Sequence record: AY753669.1
Source: Escherichia phage D6
DNA length: 7,644 nt
Reading direction: 5' to 3' (one strand)
Below the pieces are notes generated by a model. That model had not been told where the DNA came from. It did not search any database and saw only the letters and a list, made by a program, of their open reading frames with translations. Positions 1 through 7,644 of the stretch are shown piece after piece. Positions within the stretch are counted from its first letter, which is position 1. Each line of letters starts with the position of its first letter. Both the position numbers and the translations under genes were made by a program.

Positions 1-5
1 TAGTA

Positions 6-263
6 ATGACCACCAGGGGGATGAGGGTTAGATTTCGCTGGAAAGCAGAGCAAGTAACGCCATTCAGAGAGCCATCAATGCCGCTGCAGGTTGAGCAGGA
101 TTATCTATGTTTACCAGAAATAGATGGAGGAATGCTGGTGGAGTCTGATGGTAGTAAGGCTGATTTTGAAGCCAATTTGAAGCTGGCACAGGCCGTAATC
201 AATAGTTATCGCGGAAAGTGGATCGCAAAAGTGAAACATGTTGTTCGTTTGTCTCGCTGGTAG
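6..263 (+). CDS. hypothetical protein, probably the 3' end of a gene that starts upstream of the window
   Basis: 85-codon ORF in the supplied track; the frame stays open to the window edge (no in-frame stop upstream of the ATG at 6), so the true start may lie outside. No motif recognised. Confidence 0.35.
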   Translation: MTTRGMRVRFRWKAEQVTPFREPSMPLQVEQDYLCLPEIDGGMLVESDGSKADFEANLKLAQAVINSYRGKWIAKVKHVVRLSRW

Positions 264-279
264 CATTAGGTATTTAATA

Positions 280-295
280 TTAATTTTCTAATACA
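280..295 (+). promoter_or_regulatory. copy 1 of a recurring 16-bp AT-rich motif (TTAATTTTCTAATACA); candidate repressor operator upstream of the 130-aa ORF
   Basis: Seen in sequence: 14/16 identical to the copy at 6123..6138 and 13/16 to the copy at 4713..4728, all in the same orientation and all in intergenic DNA just outside gene ends. Operator function is inference. Confidence 0.4.
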
Positions 296-371
296 ATCAT
301 CTTTTTACCAGTCTATACAGTTTTAACATTCTCATTATCATCCCCTCGGTCATTTCCTGCCCGGGGGATTA

Positions 372-764
372 ATGGAACAAATCAGCAGCGCAGAAATTGC
401 GGATATCATGATCAGGGCTGACTGCTATCTGACAGTCACTGAAATTACCACTCTCGCCAAAGAAAAATACCCTCATCTCCATGTTTCACGAGTAAGTGTA
501 ACTAACATCATTCGTCATTTTGTTCGTTCAAGCAGGGCAATCTGTGAGCTGGATGATCGTGTGTATCCACGAAAATACTGGCTACATGGTCTGAACGGAT
601 ATCAGTTCAAGGTGCGCGGGCGCACGCCTGAATACGGTAGCTTACTGGTTAAAAACTGTAGCAGGAAATCAGTCGAACAGGCGCGAAAAGAGCAACGAGA
701 GCTGGTGGACATGGCGAATAAGCTGTGGAATGCCGCCGTTAAAAAGCGTGGTGTTGCTTTATGA
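372..764 (+). CDS. hypothetical small basic protein, translationally coupled to pacA; positional counterpart of the P1 late-promoter activator gene lpa (unverified)
   Basis: 130-codon ORF; GGGGGA Shine-Dalgarno-like sequence 5 nt upstream of the ATG; its TGA stop (762..764) overlaps the pacA ATG (761..763) as ATGA. The lpa suggestion rests only on my recollection of P1 gene order, not on sequence similarity. Confidence 0.6.
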   Translation: MEQISSAEIADIMIRADCYLTVTEITTLAKEKYPHLHVSRVSVTNIIRHFVRSSRAICELDDRVYPRKYWLHGLNGYQFKVRGRTPEYGSLLVKNCSRKSVEQARKEQRELVDMANKLWNAAVKKRGVAL

Positions 765-2125
765 GTCTGGTTAATTGGGAGGAGCACCGCGCCCGCTTTA
801 TAGCGTTGCGTGAAGAAAAAGGGATCACTGTAAAGGAATACTGTGAGGAGCATGGCCTTAGCTTCAATACAGCCAGAAAGCATCTCAATATGAAAAAAAA
901 TGAGGTGCGGTCGCAGGTAAAGACAACAAAAAAAAGCACCAAATCACCTGAAAAAAAACGGGCGGGAAGAGCAACAAAAAAGCTGGAAGAGGGTGCAGAA
1001 AAAACAAAATTTACAGAAATTGACAATTCGCAGGGTGCAGGTTCTTTCCGAAGTATGCCAAGAAAGAAAACTTCGGATCATGAAAGTAATACCAATAATA
1101 ACAATGAGATAAAAGAATCTGTCAGGAGATCATTGCGCGAAAAAATGGCGAAAATGATCCCCGAAGAAGATAAAAGCGCCCCAAAAATTGAGGGATCTTC
1201 AGCAATGATCCCTGGCGGTGCTGTGCAGCGTGCCACATTGCCCACTACGAATGTGGCTCGCGATATGATGAAGAACGGCGCAGAAGAACACCTGCGGTTA
1301 GCAATTCAAATGGCGCAAGAGCGCGCACTTCAGTATCAAAGCATTGTTGATCAGGAGGCCGAACGTCTACAGGCGGAAATAGACGCCTTGGGCGATAAAG
1401 AGCCAGAAGGAATGCACCCTGGGCAGCGCCTTCTCGGTCTAATCAGTGACGCGGCCTACTACATGAATGATTTTATCAGTAGGTTGGCAGCTATATATCA
1501 GTCCGAACAAAAGCTGCGACAGGGGGATGAAAAGCTTCGTCAGAGCGCTCGCCAGCAAGCATTCAAAGAGGCTGAGGCCAGAGAAAAACTCGAATTAGCA
1601 CGCCTACAGGCCGAACAGCGTGGCAAAGAGATTGAATATCGCATTGGCGCTGACGCACGCGCTGCCAGAGTTATCGCCGCCGCTATACGTATGCGTGAGC
1701 GCGAGGAACTGGATGATATCGGTGTTGCTGAATACATCGAGCGCCAGGGGGTCAGCGTCCCGGCTATCCTCGCGGCGCGCGCGGCGAAAGCTATCACTCT
1801 TCTCGAACCACCTGTTTCTGACGTCAATGATGTTGATGATGAACAGCTGGACAAAGAGGCGAGGGAGTTTGCGACGCTTCAGGCTAACCATCCGCAATGG
1901 CTGGCAGAGCGCCGGGCGGATGTGGCAACCATTGTTGAAGAATTGGGGTGCGGAGATTACGACCGCAATGGCGAGCGTAAAGCTGGAGAATTCGAGGCCA
2001 ACGACGAAGAGCTGGATATTGACCCTTCGGCAACGGCTGATATTTACGGTGATTATGATGCATCTGATGCAGGGTATGACGCCGGAGATGATGATATCGC
2101 GATAGAACCGCCGGAGGATGATTAA
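761..2125 (+). CDS. pacA: terminase small subunit / pac-site recognition protein (PacA-like)
   Basis: 454-codon ORF immediately upstream of and overlapping (TAATG) the large-terminase gene. N-terminus (MSLVNWEEHRARFIALREEKGITVKEYCEEHGLSFNTARKHL) looks like a helix-turn-helix DNA-binding domain, followed by a Lys-rich low-complexity linker and a strongly acidic C-terminal tail (..DDDIAIEPPEDD), as expected for a small terminase. Contains a GATC-hexamer cluster (see 1075..1211). The P1 pacA assignment is by synteny and domain logic. Confidence 0.7.
   Translation: MSLVNWEEHRARFIALREEKGITVKEYCEEHGLSFNTARKHLNMKKNEVRSQVKTTKKSTKSPEKKRAGRATKKLEEGAEKTKFTEIDNSQGAGSFRSMPRKKTSDHESNTNNNNEIKESVRRSLREKMAKMIPEEDKSAPKIEGSSAMIPGGAVQRATLPTTNVARDMMKNGAEEHLRLAIQMAQERALQYQSIVDQEAERLQAEIDALGDKEPEGMHPGQRLLGLISDAAYYMNDFISRLAAIYQSEQKLRQGDEKLRQSARQQAFKEAEAREKLELARLQAEQRGKEIEYRIGADARAARVIAAAIRMREREELDDIGVAEYIERQGVSVPAILAARAAKAITLLEPPVSDVNDVDDEQLDKEAREFATLQANHPQWLAERRADVATIVEELGCGDYDRNGERKAGEFEANDEELDIDPSATADIYGDYDASDAGYDAGDDDIAIEPPEDD
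1075..1211. other. candidate pac (packaging cleavage) site: cluster of five GATC-containing hexamers inside the 5' third of pacA
   Basis: Seen in sequence: GATC at 1076, 1128, 1156, 1194 and 1207, i.e. five in about 135 bp, where chance predicts well under one. Hexamers read TGATCC (1155..1160 and 1206..1211 on top; 1075..1080 on bottom), TGATCT (1127..1132 bottom) and AGATCC (1193..1198 bottom). Established knowledge: the P1 pac site lies inside pacA and consists of repeated Dam-methylatable TGATCA/G hexamers flanking the cleavage point. Assignment here is by analogy. Confidence 0.35.
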
Positions 2126-3633
2126 TGGCTGGAGGGCGCAAGATTAAATGCGTCACCAGCGATCCACGCTGGCGCGATATGGTAATCAAATACCGCTACA
2201 ACTTTACCCAAGCTGTTGTCGATATTTTTGGGATGTTCCCCTCCCACCAGCAGCAGCAGATCATTCAGTCCGTGCAGGAAACGGGGAGTAGGACGACCGT
2301 CACGTCCGGACACGGAACGGGGAAGTCGTCCCTTACCGCGATGTTGCTGTTGATTTTCATGATCCTGTTCCCCGATGCCCGTGTCATCATTGTTGCTAAC
2401 AAGATAGGCCAGGTAAAAACAGGCGTATTCAAATACGTTAAACAGTATTGGGCGAATGCAGTTAAGCGTCATGGGTGGTTGCAGACCTATTTTGTCCTCT
2501 CTGACACCATGTTTTATGAGCGCTCCCGTAAGGGGATTTGGGAAGTTCTCTGCAAAGGTTATCGACTCGGCAACGAAGAAGCGCTGGCGGGGGAACACGC
2601 GGCACATTTGCTTCTAATTCTGGATGAAGCATCTGGTATATCTGATAAGGCGATCGGCGTAATGACCGGTGCTCTTACTGAAGAAGATAACCGGATGTTG
2701 ATGCTATCCCAGCCAACAAGGCCAAGTGGTTATTTCTACGATTCGCACCATTCTCAAGCAAAAACCCCAGACAACCCGAAAGGGATCTGGACAGCAATTG
2801 TTCTTAACTCGGAAGAATCACCGTTCGTCACACCACAATTCATCAAGCAGAAGCTTCTGGAATATGGCGGGCGCGATTCTATTGAGTACATGGTCAAGGT
2901 GCTTGGTCAGTTCCCACGAGAAATTAACGGCTATTTGCTTGGTCGTGATGAATGCGATCGCGCTGCTCGCCGCAAGGTGTTGTTGGAGAAAAACTGGGGA
3001 TGGGTGGCAACGGCTGACGTTGGTAATGGGCGAGATAAGTCGGTCCTCAACATCTGCAAGGTATCAGGTCACAGGGATAAGCGGCGCGTTGTTAACTTTA
3101 AGGTAATGGAGATGTCTGGCACTATGGACCCATTGGCCTTTGCTGACTTCATATATAACGAATGTACGCCGGAAAAATACCCGAATATAACAATCGCGGT
3201 TGATGCTGATGGTTTTGGTTCTGATACGTGTGCGCAGTTGGTGCGTCGTGGTGCGAACCCGGTACGTATTCGGTGGGGAAAACCCATGTTTGCGAACAAA
3301 GACAGGGAGCGATTTGTTAATCAGCGTGCCTACGCAAATATTATGGCGCGTGATGCCATAAAGTCAGGGCGTATGCGGATAGACAGTGACCCTAAAACGG
3401 CAGAGCAAGCGTCAAAAATCCCCTTTTTACTGAATGAAGAAGGGAAAATGGCGATGATGCGCAAAGAGCACATGCGGCAAAAGCTAAACATCAAATCGCC
3501 TGACCGATGGGATACCTACTGCTTCACTATGCTGGTGGACTATGTGCCTGCTAATGAAGATATTGGTGCCGAAATGGCAACTTTCCGAGATCAGGTTCTG
3601 GCGGATATCGAAATGCCGGATCTGGATATATAA
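2125..3633 (+). CDS. pacB: terminase large subunit (PacB-like; ATPase plus nuclease)
   Basis: 502-codon ORF. Walker A-like P-loop (VTSGHGTGKSSL) and Walker B-like hydrophobic stretch ending in DE (LLLILDEASG) in the N-terminal half; acidic nuclease-type segments in the C-terminal half (IAVDADGFGSD). Start overlaps the pacA stop (TAATG). Confidence 0.85.
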   Translation: MAGGRKIKCVTSDPRWRDMVIKYRYNFTQAVVDIFGMFPSHQQQQIIQSVQETGSRTTVTSGHGTGKSSLTAMLLLIFMILFPDARVIIVANKIGQVKTGVFKYVKQYWANAVKRHGWLQTYFVLSDTMFYERSRKGIWEVLCKGYRLGNEEALAGEHAAHLLLILDEASGISDKAIGVMTGALTEEDNRMLMLSQPTRPSGYFYDSHHSQAKTPDNPKGIWTAIVLNSEESPFVTPQFIKQKLLEYGGRDSIEYMVKVLGQFPREINGYLLGRDECDRAARRKVLLEKNWGWVATADVGNGRDKSVLNICKVSGHRDKRRVVNFKVMEMSGTMDPLAFADFIYNECTPEKYPNITIAVDADGFGSDTCAQLVRRGANPVRIRWGKPMFANKDRERFVNQRAYANIMARDAIKSGRMRIDSDPKTAEQASKIPFLLNEEGKMAMMRKEHMRQKLNIKSPDRWDTYCFTMLVDYVPANEDIGAEMATFRDQVLADIEMPDLDI

Positions 3634-3634
3634 A

Positions 3635-3651
3635 GCCCCGCGATGCGGGGC
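3635..3651. terminator. hairpin between the convergent pacB and 345-aa genes; possible bidirectional intrinsic terminator
   Basis: Perfect 7-bp stem GCCCCGC / GCGGGGC with a 3-nt loop (GAT), directly after the pacB stop and directly after the stop of the - strand gene (3661). There is a T/A-rich run on the - strand side (TTATATAT) but no clean U-tract on the + side. Confidence 0.45.
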
Positions 3652-3660
3652 CGGTTGTGA

Positions 3661-4698
3661 TTACCAGAGCTTCGCGGCGTACTGCGTTTGGGGGAATGTG
3701 TATCCGTAACGTTCTTCGATTGCTTTGCCGTATTTTTTACGAGCTTCATTCAGTTTAATGCCGGTCAGGTCGTCTCCAGAGGCCATCATTACGTCTAACA
3801 ATTCCAGATCCATTTTATCCAGCCTTGCCATTGCTTCACGTGATGTACGTATCTTACGCTCAATGATATGGCGAATAGCCGGATCGGCATCCTCCAGCAT
3901 CTTAGCGGATTTCTGCTTAAGGCTTTCATTGCGAATATCGATGTTCCTTAAGATGTACGACTTCGCAACGTAGCTTGGCTGGTGTTTTTCCAGGTCACGA
4001 ACACGATATAAGTTAAAATCGCCGAGAAGGCTGCAAGGTACCGATTCGACGCCAGAATAAATTGTAATGCTCCGGCGTTCACCAACATTATTGACAACGG
4101 GGATCGTTGTCTTCGGTAGTCTTGCGAAAACCAATGCGCCATGTGCGCCAACTCTAAAGCGAGAAAGGGCATTGCTGCCTTCGATGTTTGTTGTCAGCAC
4201 AACATCTGTATATGCCTCTTTACGCGCCCGGTAGATCTCGCCTTCAGGCTCAGCTTCAAAGAAGCGCTGTTCTTCTTCAAGAGCACCTACGATTTGAGAA
4301 AAAACCCTATTTTTCAGGCTTTTCTTTATGATTTTGTCGTATTTTTTTAGCAATTGTTCACGTGTAAATGTACGTGTTGTTGTAGCGCTTTGCACAACGA
4401 CATGCGTGCTTTGATTGGTGTCCTCAATGATGAATGGGATCGGAGAATATACAGACTCAACAATGTTCGACGCTTTGCCGTCGGCATCGCGGCACATGTC
4501 AACGAAGGCTTTCCATTCAGCAAGACATTTTTCAGCTTCTTCTAATATGTTTTGGTCATGCGTTAATGCAACATGGCGGAATTCCTCGCCAGCATAACTG
4601 GTATCATGGAAAACAGAGTTTGCGACCACCAGCTCTTTCCACCGTTCAGCGGTTTGCAGGAACCGTTTGTACTCTTTCTCGATCGACTTCTTACTCAT
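3661..4698 (-). CDS. c1: 345-aa protein at the immC position; putative C1-type immunity repressor by synteny (function unverified)
   Basis: Long - strand ORF convergent with pacB and divergent from the recombinase; AGGA Shine-Dalgarno-like sequence a few nt upstream of the ATG. In P1 the gene between pacB and loxP-cre is c1. I see no motif that proves repressor function, so CDS existence is about 0.85 and the C1 identity about 0.4. Confidence 0.55.
   Translation of the reverse strand: MSKKSIEKEYKRFLQTAERWKELVVANSVFHDTSYAGEEFRHVALTHDQNILEEAEKCLAEWKAFVDMCRDADGKASNIVESVYSPIPFIIEDTNQSTHVVVQSATTTRTFTREQLLKKYDKIIKKSLKNRVFSQIVGALEEEQRFFEAEPEGEIYRARKEAYTDVVLTTNIEGSNALSRFRVGAHGALVFARLPKTTIPVVNNVGERRSITIYSGVESVPCSLLGDFNLYRVRDLEKHQPSYVAKSYILRNIDIRNESLKQKSAKMLEDADPAIRHIIERKIRTSREAMARLDKMDLELLDVMMASGDDLTGIKLNEARKKYGKAIEERYGYTFPQTQYAAKLW
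3807..3885. repeat. 79-bp GATC-bounded segment inside the 345-aa gene that recurs in inverted orientation at 7309..7387 and 7566..7644
   Basis: Seen in sequence: the reverse complement of 3807..3885 is identical, base for base, to 7309..7387. It begins and ends with GATC. Confidence 0.9.
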
Positions 4699-4712
4699 TA
4701 TTCCTACTCGAT

Positions 4713-4728
4713 TTAGTTTTCTAACATA
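4713..4728 (+). promoter_or_regulatory. copy 2 of the 16-bp motif (TTAGTTTTCTAACATA); candidate operator in the leader of the 345-aa gene
   Basis: 13/16 identical to the copies at 280..295 and 6123..6138; lies 15 to 30 bp upstream of the - strand gene start. Confidence 0.4.
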
Positions 4729-4797
4729 AAATTACTATGACAAATTTATGTCGAATAACAGAGTGAGTAAAGGATCGAACTGTGATTTTTTGTCATC

Positions 4798-4813
4798 AAT
4801 TTTAGAAAACCAA
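4798..4813 (-). promoter_or_regulatory. copy 3 of the 16-bp motif, weaker and inverted (reads TTGGTTTTCTAAAATT on the - strand)
   Basis: Shares the TTTTCTAA core; 13/16 to the degenerate consensus TTA[AG][TA]TTTCTAA[CT]A[CT]A; about 70 bp from copy 2 in the same intergenic region. Confidence 0.3.
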
Positions 4814-4908
4814 CCGTAGAAACCACACTTCGCTAATTAAAGACCATGAAGGCAACGTGTTACTGGTCATCATCAATCTATGATGGATTAAAAAAAATCG
4901 GCATTTTA

Positions 4909-4940
4909 TAACTTTAAATAATTGGCATTATTTAAAGTTA
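4909..4940. other. rox: rox site: 32-bp recombination target of Dre (14-bp perfect inverted arms around a 4-bp asymmetric spacer)
   Basis: Seen in sequence: TAACTTTAAATAAT-TGGC-ATTATTTAAAGTTA. This is the exact reverse complement of the rox site as I recall it (TAACTTTAAATAATGCCAATTATTTAAAGTTA). Including the flanking A at 4908, one arm matches the loxP arm ATAACTTCGTATA at 10/13 positions. It lies about 150 bp upstream of the recombinase gene. Confidence 0.85.
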
Positions 4941-4949
4941 GGCTATAAT
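4922..4949 (+). promoter_or_regulatory. candidate sigma70 promoter reading toward the recombinase gene, overlapping rox
   Basis: -35 TTGGCA (4922..4927, spanning the rox spacer), 16-bp spacer, perfect -10 TATAAT (4944..4949). Established knowledge: P1 cre has multiple promoters in the loxP-proximal region. Activity is not demonstrated. Confidence 0.4.
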
Positions 4950-5092
4950 CATGTGTAGATGAACAGTATTGACATCACTGAAAATACGTACCTCCAATCA
5001 AAGGCTTGTATTTTGAAAATTAACTTATAGCTACCCTGTCATTTTTATATTTTTCGCGTAGCGTCATCTGTATATAGAGGTGAAATGGTTTC

Positions 5093-6121
5093 ATGAGTGA
5101 ATTAATTATCTCTGGCAGTTCCGGTGGTTTTCTGCGCAACATTGGCAAAGAGTACCAGGAAGCCGCAGAAAACTTTATGCGGTTCATGAATGATCAGGGT
5201 GCTTATGCGCCGAATACTCTGCGCGACCTCCGGTTGGTGTTTCATTCCTGGGCGCGCTGGTGTCACGCTCGCCAGCTTGCCTGGTTTCCGATCTCACCAG
5301 AAATGGCCCGCGAGTATTTTCTTCAGTTGCATGATGCCGATCTGGCTTCGACCACCATTGATAAGCACTACGCCATGCTTAACATGCTGCTTTCTCATTG
5401 TGGCCTTCCGCCACTTTCGGATGATAAAAGTGTTTCTCTGGCTATGCGGCGTATCCGGCGCGAAGCGGCAACGGAAAAAGGCGAACGAACAGGCCAGGCT
5501 ATACCGCTGCGATGGGACGACCTGAAACTGCTCGACGTCCTGTTGTCCAGGTCAGAACGGCTGGTGGACCTGCGCAACCGGGCTTTTCTCTTTGTTGCAT
5601 ACAATACGCTGATGCGTATGTCGGAAATCTCGCGTATTCGTGTAGGAGATCTGGACCAAACAGGTGACACTGTCACGCTACATATTTCACACACGAAGAC
5701 AATAACGACCGCCGCCGGGCTTGATAAGGTGCTTTCCCGTCGCACTACTGCTGTGCTGAATGACTGGCTGGATGTTTCCGGGCTTCGTGAACATCCTGAC
5801 GCGGTGCTGTTCCCGCCGATACACCGTAGCAATAAGGCCAGGATTACGACAACGCCCCTTACTGCACCTGCAATGGAGAAAATATTCAGCGACGCCTGGG
5901 TGTTGCTGAATAAAAGGGATGCCACGCCAAACAAAGGGAGATACCGGACGTGGACCGGGCATAGTGCTCGTGTCGGGGCCGCTATCGATATGGCTGAAAA
6001 GCAGGTGTCTATGGTGGAGATTATGCAGGAAGGAACCTGGAAGAAACCGGAAACACTTATGCGGTATCTGCGCCGTGGCGGTGTGTCTGTGGGGGCTAAT
6101 AGCCGCTTGATGGATTCATAA
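5093..6121 (+). CDS. dre: Dre, a Cre-family tyrosine site-specific recombinase (rox-specific)
   Basis: 342-codon ORF, GAGGTG Shine-Dalgarno-like sequence about 9 nt upstream. Clear Cre-like sequence throughout (e.g. SVSLAMRRIRRE, RNRAFLFVAYNTLMRMSEISRIRVGDL, TGHSARVGAAIDMA, EIMQEGTWKKPETLMRYLRR), with the Cre catalytic Arg, His-x-x-Arg, Trp and Tyr positions conserved. The N-terminus MSELIISGSS and the adjacent exact rox site identify it as Dre rather than Cre. Confidence 0.9.
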   Translation: MSELIISGSSGGFLRNIGKEYQEAAENFMRFMNDQGAYAPNTLRDLRLVFHSWARWCHARQLAWFPISPEMAREYFLQLHDADLASTTIDKHYAMLNMLLSHCGLPPLSDDKSVSLAMRRIRREAATEKGERTGQAIPLRWDDLKLLDVLLSRSERLVDLRNRAFLFVAYNTLMRMSEISRIRVGDLDQTGDTVTLHISHTKTITTAAGLDKVLSRRTTAVLNDWLDVSGLREHPDAVLFPPIHRSNKARITTTPLTAPAMEKIFSDAWVLLNKRDATPNKGRYRTWTGHSARVGAAIDMAEKQVSMVEIMQEGTWKKPETLMRYLRRGGVSVGANSRLMDS

Positions 6122-6122
6122 A

Positions 6123-6138
6123 TTAAATTTCTAACACA
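6123..6138 (+). promoter_or_regulatory. copy 4 of the 16-bp motif (TTAAATTTCTAACACA); candidate operator between dre and the downstream operon
   Basis: Begins 2 bp after the dre stop codon, about 55 bp upstream of the next ORF; 14/16 identical to copy 1. Confidence 0.4.
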
Positions 6139-6194
6139 TCTTTTTAGATTGATATCTTTGCTGTAAAGTACCCTCGCCTATTTTGGAGGGTGCT

Positions 6195-6539
6195 TTGCAG
6201 AGTCAAATCACGGAATCAAGACGCTTCACGGTGGATGGTTACACCGTAACCTTCGCCGCTGGTGTTAAGAACAGTCATGCTGTCGTTGTATTCGGCATCA
6301 TGACCGGGCTTGAGGCCGTCCCTGTGTTTACCCTCGAAAAAAACTGGCGAAATCTGGAGGAAGCAGAAAGCTACGTCCGGAAAGTAACCATCATTGCCGC
6401 CGAAAAACTCCTGGCCCACTATCAGGAAAATTATCGCACTATGGTCGAGAAGATTAATCTCGCTTTCACTCGCCCCACTACCGGCTTTATTGCACCGGAT
6501 ACTAATGCAGGTCGATATCCGGCAAGGGGGCGTCGGTGA
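6195..6539 (+). CDS. hypothetical protein (about 114 to 118 aa), first gene of a small operon downstream of dre
   Basis: ORF in the track from 6183. There is no in-frame ATG near the 5' end; the TTG at 6195 is preceded by GGAGGG (6185..6190) at good spacing, so I place the start there (alternatives: TTG 6183, GTG 6231). Its stop overlaps the GTG start of the next ORF (GTGA at 6536..6539). No recognisable motif. Confidence 0.5.
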   Translation: MQSQITESRRFTVDGYTVTFAAGVKNSHAVVVFGIMTGLEAVPVFTLEKNWRNLEEAESYVRKVTIIAAEKLLAHYQENYRTMVEKINLAFTRPTTGFIAPDTNAGRYPARGRR

Positions 6540-7012
6540 AAACTTATTACCCATCTCTGAATTGTTACCCGTCTTCCTATCCAGGATTGTCCGGGAAGCT
6601 GTTAGCTCTATTAGCTAAAGCACCTACGGAATGGTTTAAGCCAGTCGTTATCAATCCACACTTCCTGGATTACGGATCTGTTCGCACTCGTAACGAACTC
6701 AAAAACCTACTGGCGCATGGATTCATTCGACACCGTGCCGGTAAAGGCTATCAGTTATCGATTGCGCCAGAAGAGGCCGTGCGGCTATTCGCATATCGTG
6801 ACAGCCAGACAAAAGCTCGGGTAATAGCTCAAATACTTCATAACGGCAGCACCTATGCCCGCCAGTTTGGCGGCGACACGTCGCAGTTCTTGCGGGCGGT
6901 GCGATCGCTGGAGGAGCAAGGAGTTATTGAAAGTTCCTGTCTTCCTGTTCCAACCGTTCCACATATCAAACGTCGGGTTTACACCTTCACGCAGAGAGCT
7001 AAAAAACAATGA
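6536..7012 (+). CDS. hypothetical protein (158 aa), GTG start, translationally coupled both upstream and downstream
   Basis: ORF in the track; GTGA overlap with the previous ORF and ATGA overlap (7009..7012) with the dUTPase-like gene. Composition is protein-like; no motif recognised with confidence. Confidence 0.55.
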   Translation: MKTYYPSLNCYPSSYPGLSGKLLALLAKAPTEWFKPVVINPHFLDYGSVRTRNELKNLLAHGFIRHRAGKGYQLSIAPEEAVRLFAYRDSQTKARVIAQILHNGSTYARQFGGDTSQFLRAVRSLEEQGVIESSCLPVPTVPHIKRRVYTFTQRAKKQ

Positions 7013-7455
7013 TTTACGTAAAAGTGAAACGCCTACATCCGGCAGCAAAACTTCCAGCTTATGCCACCTCCGGATCGGCGGCGATGGATTTTGAGGCTGT
7101 TGAAATAAAACCATGTGTCGATAGCAATGGTGCAATTTCCTCAAGCTGGTGGGTGTACACCGGATTGGCTATGGAGATCCCGCCCGGCTGGTGTCTGAAA
7201 CTCTATCCGCGATCCGGATTGGGCTGCAAAAAACATACTCGCCTGGCTAACTGCGTAGGAATTATCGACTCCGATTATCGCGGCGAAATCATGGCAAAAC
7301 TGATTACTGATCCGGCTATTCGCCATATCATTGAGCGTAAGATACGTACATCACGTGAAGCAATGGCAAGGCTGGATAAAATGGATCTGCAATTTCCTCA
7401 AGCTGGTGGGTGTACACCGGATTGGCTATGGAGATCCCGCCCGGCTGGTGTCTGA
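7009..7455 (+). CDS. dut: dUTPase-family gene (trimeric dUTPase motifs I-III) whose 3' part is replaced or disrupted after codon 100
   Basis: N-terminal 100 aa carry dUTPase hallmarks: ..LPAYATSGSAAMDF.. (motif I region), YPRSGLG (motif II), GIIDSDYRGE (motif III). Motifs IV and V are absent. From 7309 the reading frame runs into the inverted 79-bp copy of the 345-aa gene fragment (reading DPAIRHIIERKIRTSREAMARLDKMDL) and then into an out-of-frame second copy of dut sequence, ending at 7455. The 148-aa ORF as drawn is therefore chimeric; it may be a pseudogene or an artefact. Confidence 0.55.
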   Translation: MIYVKVKRLHPAAKLPAYATSGSAAMDFEAVEIKPCVDSNGAISSSWWVYTGLAMEIPPGWCLKLYPRSGLGCKKHTRLANCVGIIDSDYRGEIMAKLITDPAIRHIIERKIRTSREAMARLDKMDLQFPQAGGCTPDWLWRSRPAGV

Positions 7456-7644
7456 AACTCTATCCGCGATCCGGATTGGGCTGCAAAAAACATACTCGCC
7501 TGGCTAACTGCGTAGGAATTATCGACTCCGATTATCGCGGCGAAATCATGGCAAAACTGATTACTGATCCGGCTATTCGCCATATCATTGAGCGTAAGAT
7601 ACGTACATCACGTGAAGCAATGGCAAGGCTGGATAAAATGGATC
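7131..7644. repeat. perfect tandem direct duplication, 2 x 257 bp (7131..7387 and 7388..7644), ending exactly at the window edge
   Basis: Seen in sequence: the two copies are identical base for base. Each copy is 178 bp of dut coding sequence plus the 79-bp inverted fragment of the 345-aa gene. The identical antisense 61-aa ORFs at 7141..7326 and 7398..7583 in the track are a by-product. Confidence 0.9.
7309..7387. repeat. inverted copy of 3807..3885 (79 bp, GATC-bounded); a second identical copy lies at 7566..7644
   Basis: Exact reverse-complement identity to 3807..3885, verified by hand. Confidence 0.9.

Follow-up and report, generated by a model that had tools for sequence, protein, structure and literature searches.

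Background

The immunity region of Escherichia phage D6 raises the question of which protein keeps this plasmid-prophage in the lysogenic state. In phage P1, the immC region holds the repressor gene c1 (283 aa) between pacB and lox, with coi (69 aa), imcB, imcA and five annotated C1 operators upstream of it; in D6, the corresponding slot is filled by a single gene of 345 codons. This gene lies in a stretch of 7,644 nucleotides (sequence record AY753669.1), hereafter called the window, and it was analysed here together with the complete 91-kb D6 genome and the related plasmids. We propose, with a probability of roughly 0.8, that the open reading frame (ORF) encodes the master lysogeny (immC) repressor of D6 and belongs to the P1/P7 C1 family as a deeply diverged member.

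The identity of the gene is not new in itself: D6 c1 already carries an annotation in GenBank, and its likeness to C1 was reportedly also noted when the Dre/rox region was first sequenced. In MF356679 the ORF is labelled D6_1, 'prophage repressor; similar to P1 gene C1'. The present analysis adds the long-form architecture of the protein, a predicted operator with its regulon, documentation that Coi and Lxc are absent from D6, and a predicted fold resembling that of the replication terminator protein Tus.

P1 C1 is an experimentally established repressor (PMC8546580). It binds 22 dispersed, asymmetric operators of 17 bp with the consensus ATTGCTCTAATAAATTT, and RepL and Lpa are among the functions under its control (PMC8546580). 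The antirepressor Coi and the co-repressor Lxc are held responsible for the lysogeny decision of P1, which is independent of the multiplicity of infection (PMC8546580).

Position and conservation of the gene

The window is 100% identical to Escherichia phage D6 (MF356679.1 / NC_050154.1) over positions 1-4924 and 4925-7311, as determined by megablast. The first of these segments is the reverse complement of positions 1-4924 of record MF356679.1, and the second spans the origin of that record, which falls in the middle of rox. The genes follow the order lpa, pacA and pacB on the + strand, the 345-codon ORF on the - strand, then rox, dre, orf117, orf116 and dut. D6 c1 is therefore found at the immC position, between pacB and a lox-type site accompanied by a Cre-type recombinase, and is convergent with pacB; it is the single C1-like locus in D6.

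The first-pass annotation, which was made from the window sequence alone, had placed a single 345-codon gene in the immC slot, judged it longer than P1 c1 and seen no coi-sized ORF between its start and rox. These three observations hold. The ORF is open from its ATG across 3661-4698 on the - strand, within the interval between pacB and rox, and its product exceeds that of P1 c1 by 62 residues (345 vs 283 aa). The 210-bp interval from the c1 ATG (4698) to rox (4909-4940) contains no - strand ORF of more than 26 codons, the longest having 26 (GTG start) and 24 (TTG start) codons vs the 69 of P1 coi.

The gene is also widespread. Homologues of c1 occur in 149 plasmid records at 24-100% identity, and 147 of them cover at least 80% of the protein. 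The order recombinase, c1, pacB, pacA, lpa is retained in relatives whose repressors are as little as 28% identical.

Homology to the C1 family

As judged from sequence comparison, the D6 protein is a true but distant member of the C1 family, and not an equivalog. A direct BLASTP comparison with P1 C1 returned one colinear alignment of 240 residues at 21% identity (E 2e-8). Both proteins match PHROG 1678 (phrog_1678), the D6 protein at E 2.8e-170 and P1 C1 at E 2.6e-140; on this profile of 347 positions, P1 C1 spans 1-280 and the D6 protein 2-347. When the alignment of the D6 clade was compared with that of the P1 clade, hhalign gave a probability of 99.8% (E 6e-30), and D6 residues 7-240 were paired with P1 residues 8-245, which make up the entire structured core of P1 C1.

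An exhaustive HMMER search of 1.84 billion representative sequences with the D6-clade profile recovered 84 proteins, which form a long class (345-380 aa, matching the full profile) and a short class (250-290 aa, matching about profile positions 1-245). Among the short-class proteins is one that shares 53% identity with P1 C1 (E 3.9e-6), and a continuum of intermediates is present. Precomputed annotations record the family PF27008 (Phage_P7_repressor_C1) on cluster representatives that are 99-43% identical, and the top NCBIfam match is the C1 equivalog NF041318 (25.4 bits, E 8.9e-6).

The identity of the repressor had at first been assumed from synteny only, a divergent C1 being one option and a different protein the other. 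The former is favoured by the shared PHROG, the BLASTP alignment, the hhalign probability and the presence of PF27008 on near-identical representatives, so that the assignment is now backed by remote sequence homology to P1 C1. The homology check itself had a divided outcome. Profile methods and direct BLASTP detect the kinship, whereas a tblastn search of the D6 protein against 50,697 phage records did not retrieve P1 at E <= 10 and returned only D6 at meaningful E-values. Profile methods are therefore needed, and plain BLAST came close to the absence of detectable homology that the first-pass annotation had named as speaking against a C1-type repressor. A PADLOC search of the D6 protein gave no match.

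Candidate operators of the repressor

Repeat finding in the window revealed TTRRTTTTCTAAYA at positions 280, 4713 and 6123 (+) and, inverted, at 4799. The informative core is asymmetric and 16 bp long, TTARTTTTCTAACAYA; allowing up to three mismatches, it occurs in four copies in the window against 0.20 expected, and none of 200 shuffles reached four. Two copies lie upstream of the c1 start, the distal of which abuts a -35-like TTGATGACA and has an inverted counterpart in the relatives L006 and L092. The copy upstream of lpa is kept in the relatives L092 and L093, and that past dre has a counterpart in L006, L092 and L093 (coordinates in Table 1).

On the scale of the complete genome, a weight matrix scan returned 17 sites with a score of at least 13, all 17 of them intergenic in a genome of which 89.8% is annotated; shuffled genomes yielded about one. 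The count of intergenic copies of the 16-bp core across the genome is at least 16. The sites stand before c1 (two), lpa, repL, ref/orf88, hrdC-dcm-dmt, pdcB, simB, orf117 and both icd-ant operons, and are also present around pmgS. In relatives with repressors 69%, 51% and 44% identical to that of D6, copies occur before c1, before lpa and after the recombinase gene; these retain the core TTTTCTAACA, and their 5' part drifts. At the loci of the Leclercia and Pantoea relatives with 28-30% identity, the D6 matrix found no sites, and only repeats containing TTCTAA were visible by eye. The co-variation of motif and repressor is thus seen only coarsely.

The 345-aa protein had been named as the natural candidate binder of the motif, and both the distribution of the motif across the genome and its conservation in relatives strongly suggest the same. 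We infer that this protein, well ahead of any other candidate, very probably binds the motif.

Two clear back-to-back (divergent) pairs of sites were observed at record positions 64112-64149 (L005 18112-18149 in our locus numbering) and 80705-80742 (L005 34705-34742), where they appear as near-palindromes in front of hrdC-dcm-dmt and pdcB. Many single sites, furthermore, possess a degenerate inverted partner, with TTAGA about 17 nt upstream of TCTAA. This arrangement suggests that bivalent operators are common in D6. A weak additional match to the operator matrix, TATAAGTTAATTTTCAAAATACAA, is located at 5006-5029 (-) between rox and the start of dre, with a score of 11.1; it might correspond to the P1 operator Oc1e, which faces cre.

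Comparison with P1 regulation

D6 and P1 share the layout of the regulatory system. The repressor gene occupies the same slot, its core is homologous with the same order of secondary-structure elements, and asymmetric sites of 16-17 bp are dispersed over the genome, with monovalent and bivalent sites both present. In D6, asymmetric 16-bp intergenic sites, including those at c1, lpa and repL, are recognisable by sequence. P1 has annotated operators before lpa and c1, one of them bivalent; in D6 the candidate sites stand before c1, lpa, repL and ref, and repL and ref are controlled by C1 in P1. The distance to the lpa ATG is 71 nt for P1 Olpa and 77 nt for the D6 copy. Both phages also have an ImmI-type circuit of C4 RNA, icd and ant placed behind an operator.

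The recognition elements, in contrast, have diverged. The D6 operator TTARTTTTCTAACAYA and the P1 operator ATTGCTCTAATAAATTT have the TCTAA core alone in common; the P1 consensus, with up to three mismatches, has no match in the whole D6 genome, and the D6 motif has none in the 5.3-kb piece of P1 immC that was examined. The D6 protein is 21% identical to P1 C1, has 345 vs 283 aa, and ends in a helical C-terminal domain instead of a disordered basic tail. Since D6 deviates from P1 in its operator as well as in its repressor, heteroimmunity between D6 and P1 is to be expected.

The two phages also differ in the factors that act on the repressor, since D6 is devoid of recognisable coi, imcA, imcB and lxc and has two C4/icd/ant modules, each behind a motif copy. 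Searches with P1 Coi, ImcA and ImcB by tblastn against the whole 91-kb D6 genome returned none of them (all E >= 1.0), and no Lxc homologue was found in D6 by whole-genome tblastn or by PHROG family. Lxc was also reported as not detected in D6-like plasmids (PMC6799933). Rfam identified two C4 antisense RNA genes, at L004 20964-21170 and L005 29233-29443, each upstream of an icd-antirepressor pair; one locus has an a1b1 target element and the other an isrK-like element, and each icd-ant operon is situated behind a motif copy. The different anti-repressor arrangement considered in the first-pass annotation is borne out by these data, and D6 seems to depend solely on duplicated ImmI-type circuits. 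The logic of tuning C1 activity in the lysis-lysogeny decision, known from P1 Coi and Lxc (PMC8546580), should still apply to D6, although neither factor is detectable there.

The exact P1 lxc slot (darB, ulx, lxc) is filled in D6 by orf13 (86 aa, L004 11549-11809), which lies outside the window. It was considered as an Lxc homologue and rejected, as it has no BLASTP similarity to Lxc and belongs to a different family (PHROG 6844 vs 2160). It may be a non-orthologous replacement of lxc that co-evolved with the divergent repressor.

Proposed immunity circuit

In the circuit that we propose, D6 C1 would bind each 16-bp site through its core, most likely as a monomer clamping the DNA with its interdomain beta-strands, an assumption modelled on P1 C1 and on the Tus-like predicted fold; some sites, being back-to-back pairs, would act as bivalent operators. 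Repression from the bound sites would extend to lpa (activator of the late genes), repL (replication in the lytic cycle), ref, the hrdC-dmt operon and the two C4-RNA/icd/ant operons, and the two inverted sites upstream of the c1 start would provide negative autoregulation. As D6 has no coi, the lysis-lysogeny switch and induction would have to run through the two ImmI-type antirepressor modules, themselves presumably under the control of a motif copy and of C4 antisense RNA.

D6 would thus represent a C1-type immunity circuit without Coi and Lxc. Since these are the factors credited with the multiplicity-independent decision of P1, D6 and the roughly 150 D6-like plasmids of E. coli, Salmonella and Shigella form a natural comparison system to P1. 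Moreover, the predicted operator defines a testable regulon and a candidate orthogonal repressor-operator pair to be used beside the Dre-rox tool.

Protein architecture

An AlphaFold2 model of the D6 protein was built from a family alignment of 65 sequences and reached a predicted local distance difference test (pLDDT) of 94.2 and a predicted template modelling score of 0.79. The modelled core contains two long beta-strands, at residues 99-112 and 155-171, and the residues invariant across the family are W62, P88, R159 and G187. Beyond the core, the model has a helix at 233-270, a return helix at 276-307 and three short helices within 316-342. In a P1-type representative (P0081, pLDDT 90.7), helices and strands follow in the same order as far as the counterpart of the first of these helices, which is shorter (238-255); the chain then ends in a disordered basic tail in place of the helical extension of D6.

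The extension of about 90 residues is a real domain and not read-through: long-form relatives as little as 43% identical retain it with many invariant residues, and it is modelled at pLDDT >90. Its contribution is the weakest step of our proposal. A protein-protein function seems most likely, and self-association or operator looping, replacement of the missing Lxc co-repressor and a docking surface for the antirepressor are candidate roles. That the domain may have taken over an Lxc-like or looping role, or antirepressor docking, is a reasonable candidate, offered as a hypothesis only.

Resemblance to Tus

A sequence search of the PDB retrieved no solved relative of D6 C1 or P1 C1. When the D6 model was used as a query in Foldseek, four Tus-Ter entries were the sole matches at E <= 1e-3, with E-values of 1.8e-7 to 4.2e-6, a probability of 1.00 and template modelling scores of 0.35-0.45; a Foldseek search of the viral models in BFVD returned nothing significant. 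The predicted D6 model has the arrangement that characterises the Tus fold, namely two alpha/beta domains joined by long interdomain beta-strands. At the level of sequence the signal is weaker. The D6 protein has no Tus match in Pfam (PF05472) or NCBIfam (TIGR02648); PF05472 (Ter) is the Pfam family with the largest number of matching members in the C1 alignment, but these are only two of 65, with a best E of 0.012. Comparison of the C1 family with an alignment of 80 Tus sequences by hhalign gave a probability of 45.7%, pairing D6 86-194 with Tus 146-266, and the P1 clade alone gave 55.3% over 157 colinear columns (P1 C1 13-175 with Tus 70-247). Controls, consisting of one reversed and ten block-shuffled alignments, did not exceed 7.4%.

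The DNA sites also show some resemblance. Set against the E. coli Ter core (TTAGTTACAACA) in reverse complement, the D6 operator consensus TTAGTTTTCTAACA agrees in 10 of 12 positions when one gap of 2 nt is allowed, the Ter-like stretch being TTAGTT..CTAACA. Simple simulations put P at about 0.005-0.008 for this match, a post hoc comparison that is relevant only beside the Tus-like fold.

Tus is a monomer that binds an asymmetric site of about 20 bp with its interdomain beta-strands, and for P1 C1, too, binding to the asymmetric operator in monomeric form has been reported. A resemblance between C1 and Tus is functionally sensible because both are monomeric binders of asymmetric sites. To our knowledge, Tus has so far been treated as an orphan fold limited to Enterobacterales and a few neighbours. 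The likeness to Tus (PF05472; PDB 1ECR, 4XR0-2) thus comprises a weak colinear profile signal of 46-55%, above all 11 scrambled controls. The D6 protein differs from Tus in that it would be a phage transcription repressor with promoter-proximal sites, vs a chromosomal fork barrier in the case of Tus, and in that it has an extra C-terminal helical domain.

We regard the chances as evenly balanced that the whole P1/P7/D6 C1 family, which is without a solved structure, is an evolutionary relative of Tus. C1 proteins would then be monomeric clamps that read asymmetric sites of 16-17 bp via interdomain beta-strands, and the Ter-like operator would derive from shared descent. As part of such a kinship, the repressor-operator pair of a phage-plasmid could be the source from which Tus-Ter was domesticated, or the derivation could have run the other way, and the helical domain of D6 may replace Lxc. 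The relationship is to be taken as a lead from predicted structures and modest scores, not as established homology. An incomplete search of the literature found no paper linking Tus and C1, which is weak evidence of novelty. The literature on replication termination postulates a 'domestication' of Tus-Ter without naming an ancestor (PMC8707476). If the homology is true, it would provide a concrete candidate source for this event, together with a first structural model of how C1 monomers read asymmetric operators.

Alternative explanations

Several points weigh against a C1-type repressor with the predicted regulon. The 25.4 bits obtained with NF041318 compare with a cut-off of 500 bits, so that function is not simply transferable by equivalence, and the local copy of Pfam-A has no match for the D6 protein, nor has it one for P1 C1. 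On the side of the operator, the score matrix was built from sites which it then finds, making the top 11 partly circular; the further sites, the exclusively intergenic placement and the conservation in relatives are independent of the building of the matrix. Intergenic DNA is AT-rich, as is the motif, and scans with the sigma-70 consensus place no convincing promoter over the sites of c1, lpa and orf117.

The motif might instead be the target of another factor, such as Lpa or a host protein, or an element shared by promoters or terminators, with the 345-aa protein reading a different, undetected sequence. The AT-richness common to the motif and promoter DNA would fit this explanation, as would the two copies that flank pmgS and those adjoining the major capsid gene, both of these being morphogenetic regions. 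It is, however, unlikely. The motif was tried as an Lpa late-promoter box and rejected, the P1 late-promoter elements at LPpac (-22 box ATGTGACTT) being unrelated; copies precede both lpa itself and c1, at places that correspond to those of Olpa and Oc1 in P1, and the TCTAA core is common to the motif and the P1 C1 operator. Moreover, the motif drifts with the divergence of the repressor, remaining recognisable at 69-44% identity and being lost to the matrix at 28-30%.

It is also conceivable that the protein is related to C1 by fold and descent without being the immunity repressor, and serves as a Tus-like, site-specific clamp in the replication or maintenance of the plasmid-prophage, as a fork barrier or in copy-number control, immunity being conferred by another D6 protein. 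The only solved structures that resemble the D6 model are indeed Tus-Ter complexes, and the protein falls far under the C1 equivalog threshold, has an extra domain and is found without Coi and Lxc. We hold this to be quite improbable, since the motif copies precede lpa, repL, ant and c1 and are not placed around replication origins or termini, the immC slot is kept, no other repressor candidate was noticed in the D6 annotation, and experiments have established P1 C1, whose core is the same, as a repressor (PMC8546580). That the ORF is a decaying or chimeric gene, for example c1 fused to downstream sequence with a non-functional extra length, would account for the 62 residues by which it exceeds P1 C1 and for the fragment of its 3' part that reappears at the end of the window. 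Such decay is hardly credible, given that the extension is conserved to 43% identity, is modelled at pLDDT >90 and defines the long class of 345-380 aa, and that the complete genome does not contain the repeated fragment, which is an artefact of the window end. An immC repressor of the C1 family is thus the reading that we retain.

Features of the locus and additional observations

The features of the c1 locus are collected in Table 1. The hairpin past the c1 stop sits in the 27-nt gap between c1 and the convergent pacB, and rox bounds the immC-like interval on the other side.

Table 1. Coordinates of c1, its predicted domains and the associated sites in the window
Feature	Position	Strand	Description
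c1 of D6 (D6_1, ASR76322.1)	3661..4698	-	ATG start, 345 codons and stop; PHROG 1678 E 2.8e-170; hhalign 99.8%
Conserved C1 core, codons 7-240	3979..4680	-	Predicted two-lobed alpha/beta fold resembling Tus
Helical extension specific to the D6 clade, codons ~257-345	3664..3930	-	Secondary structure of the model compared with P0081; conservation in long forms
Shine-Dalgarno AGGA	4702..4705	-	3 nt spacing to the c1 ATG; read from the sequence
Terminator-like hairpin (TTATATAT)	3634..3652	-	8 pairs, 7 of them G-C, T-rich tail; 9 nt past the c1 stop
Proximal motif copy (TTAGTTTTCTAACATA)	4713..4728	+	15-30 nt upstream of the c1 ATG; candidate autoregulatory operator
Distal motif copy (TTGGTTTTCTAAAATT, 3 mismatches)	4798..4813	-	Inverted relative to the proximal copy; 100-115 nt from the c1 ATG
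Motif copy (TTAATTTTCTAATACA)	280..295	+	77 nt upstream of the lpa ATG (372); positional match of P1 Olpa
Motif copy (TTAAATTTCTAACACA)	6123..6138	+	Directly past the dre stop, upstream of the orf117-orf116-dut operon
rox site	4909..4940	.	Inverted repeat, 14-bp arms, 4-nt centre; annotated as rox halves in MF356679

A near-consensus sigma-70 promoter was observed at 4922-4949 (+), with TTGGCA, a 16-nt spacer and TATAAT (11 of 12 positions). It begins within rox and is directed at dre, recalling the promoters around lox and cre in P1.

The end of the window, positions 7312-7644, is out of genomic order, and 7131-7387 is repeated exactly at 7388-7644 as a 257-bp unit. At about 7311-7316 the dUTPase gene is interrupted, and GATC sites connect it there to 86 bp of c1 (window 3800-3885) in inverted copy. 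This join creates a false fusion ORF of 148 aa (7009-7455) and duplicate ORFs of 61 aa. The second c1 fragment was rejected as a biological duplication, as it is absent from the complete D6 genome and is joined at GATC sites. Because the complete genome is continuous there, the window end has the look of a chimera that entered the source record through cloning or inverse PCR.

Two further observations concern RNA genes outside the window. Rfam places a tRNA-like gene at L004 6087-6159 (-) that is absent from the GenBank feature table, and within L004 7700-7850 it assigns the annotated tRNA-Thr and tRNA-Asn to the - strand, where the record lists both on the + strand.

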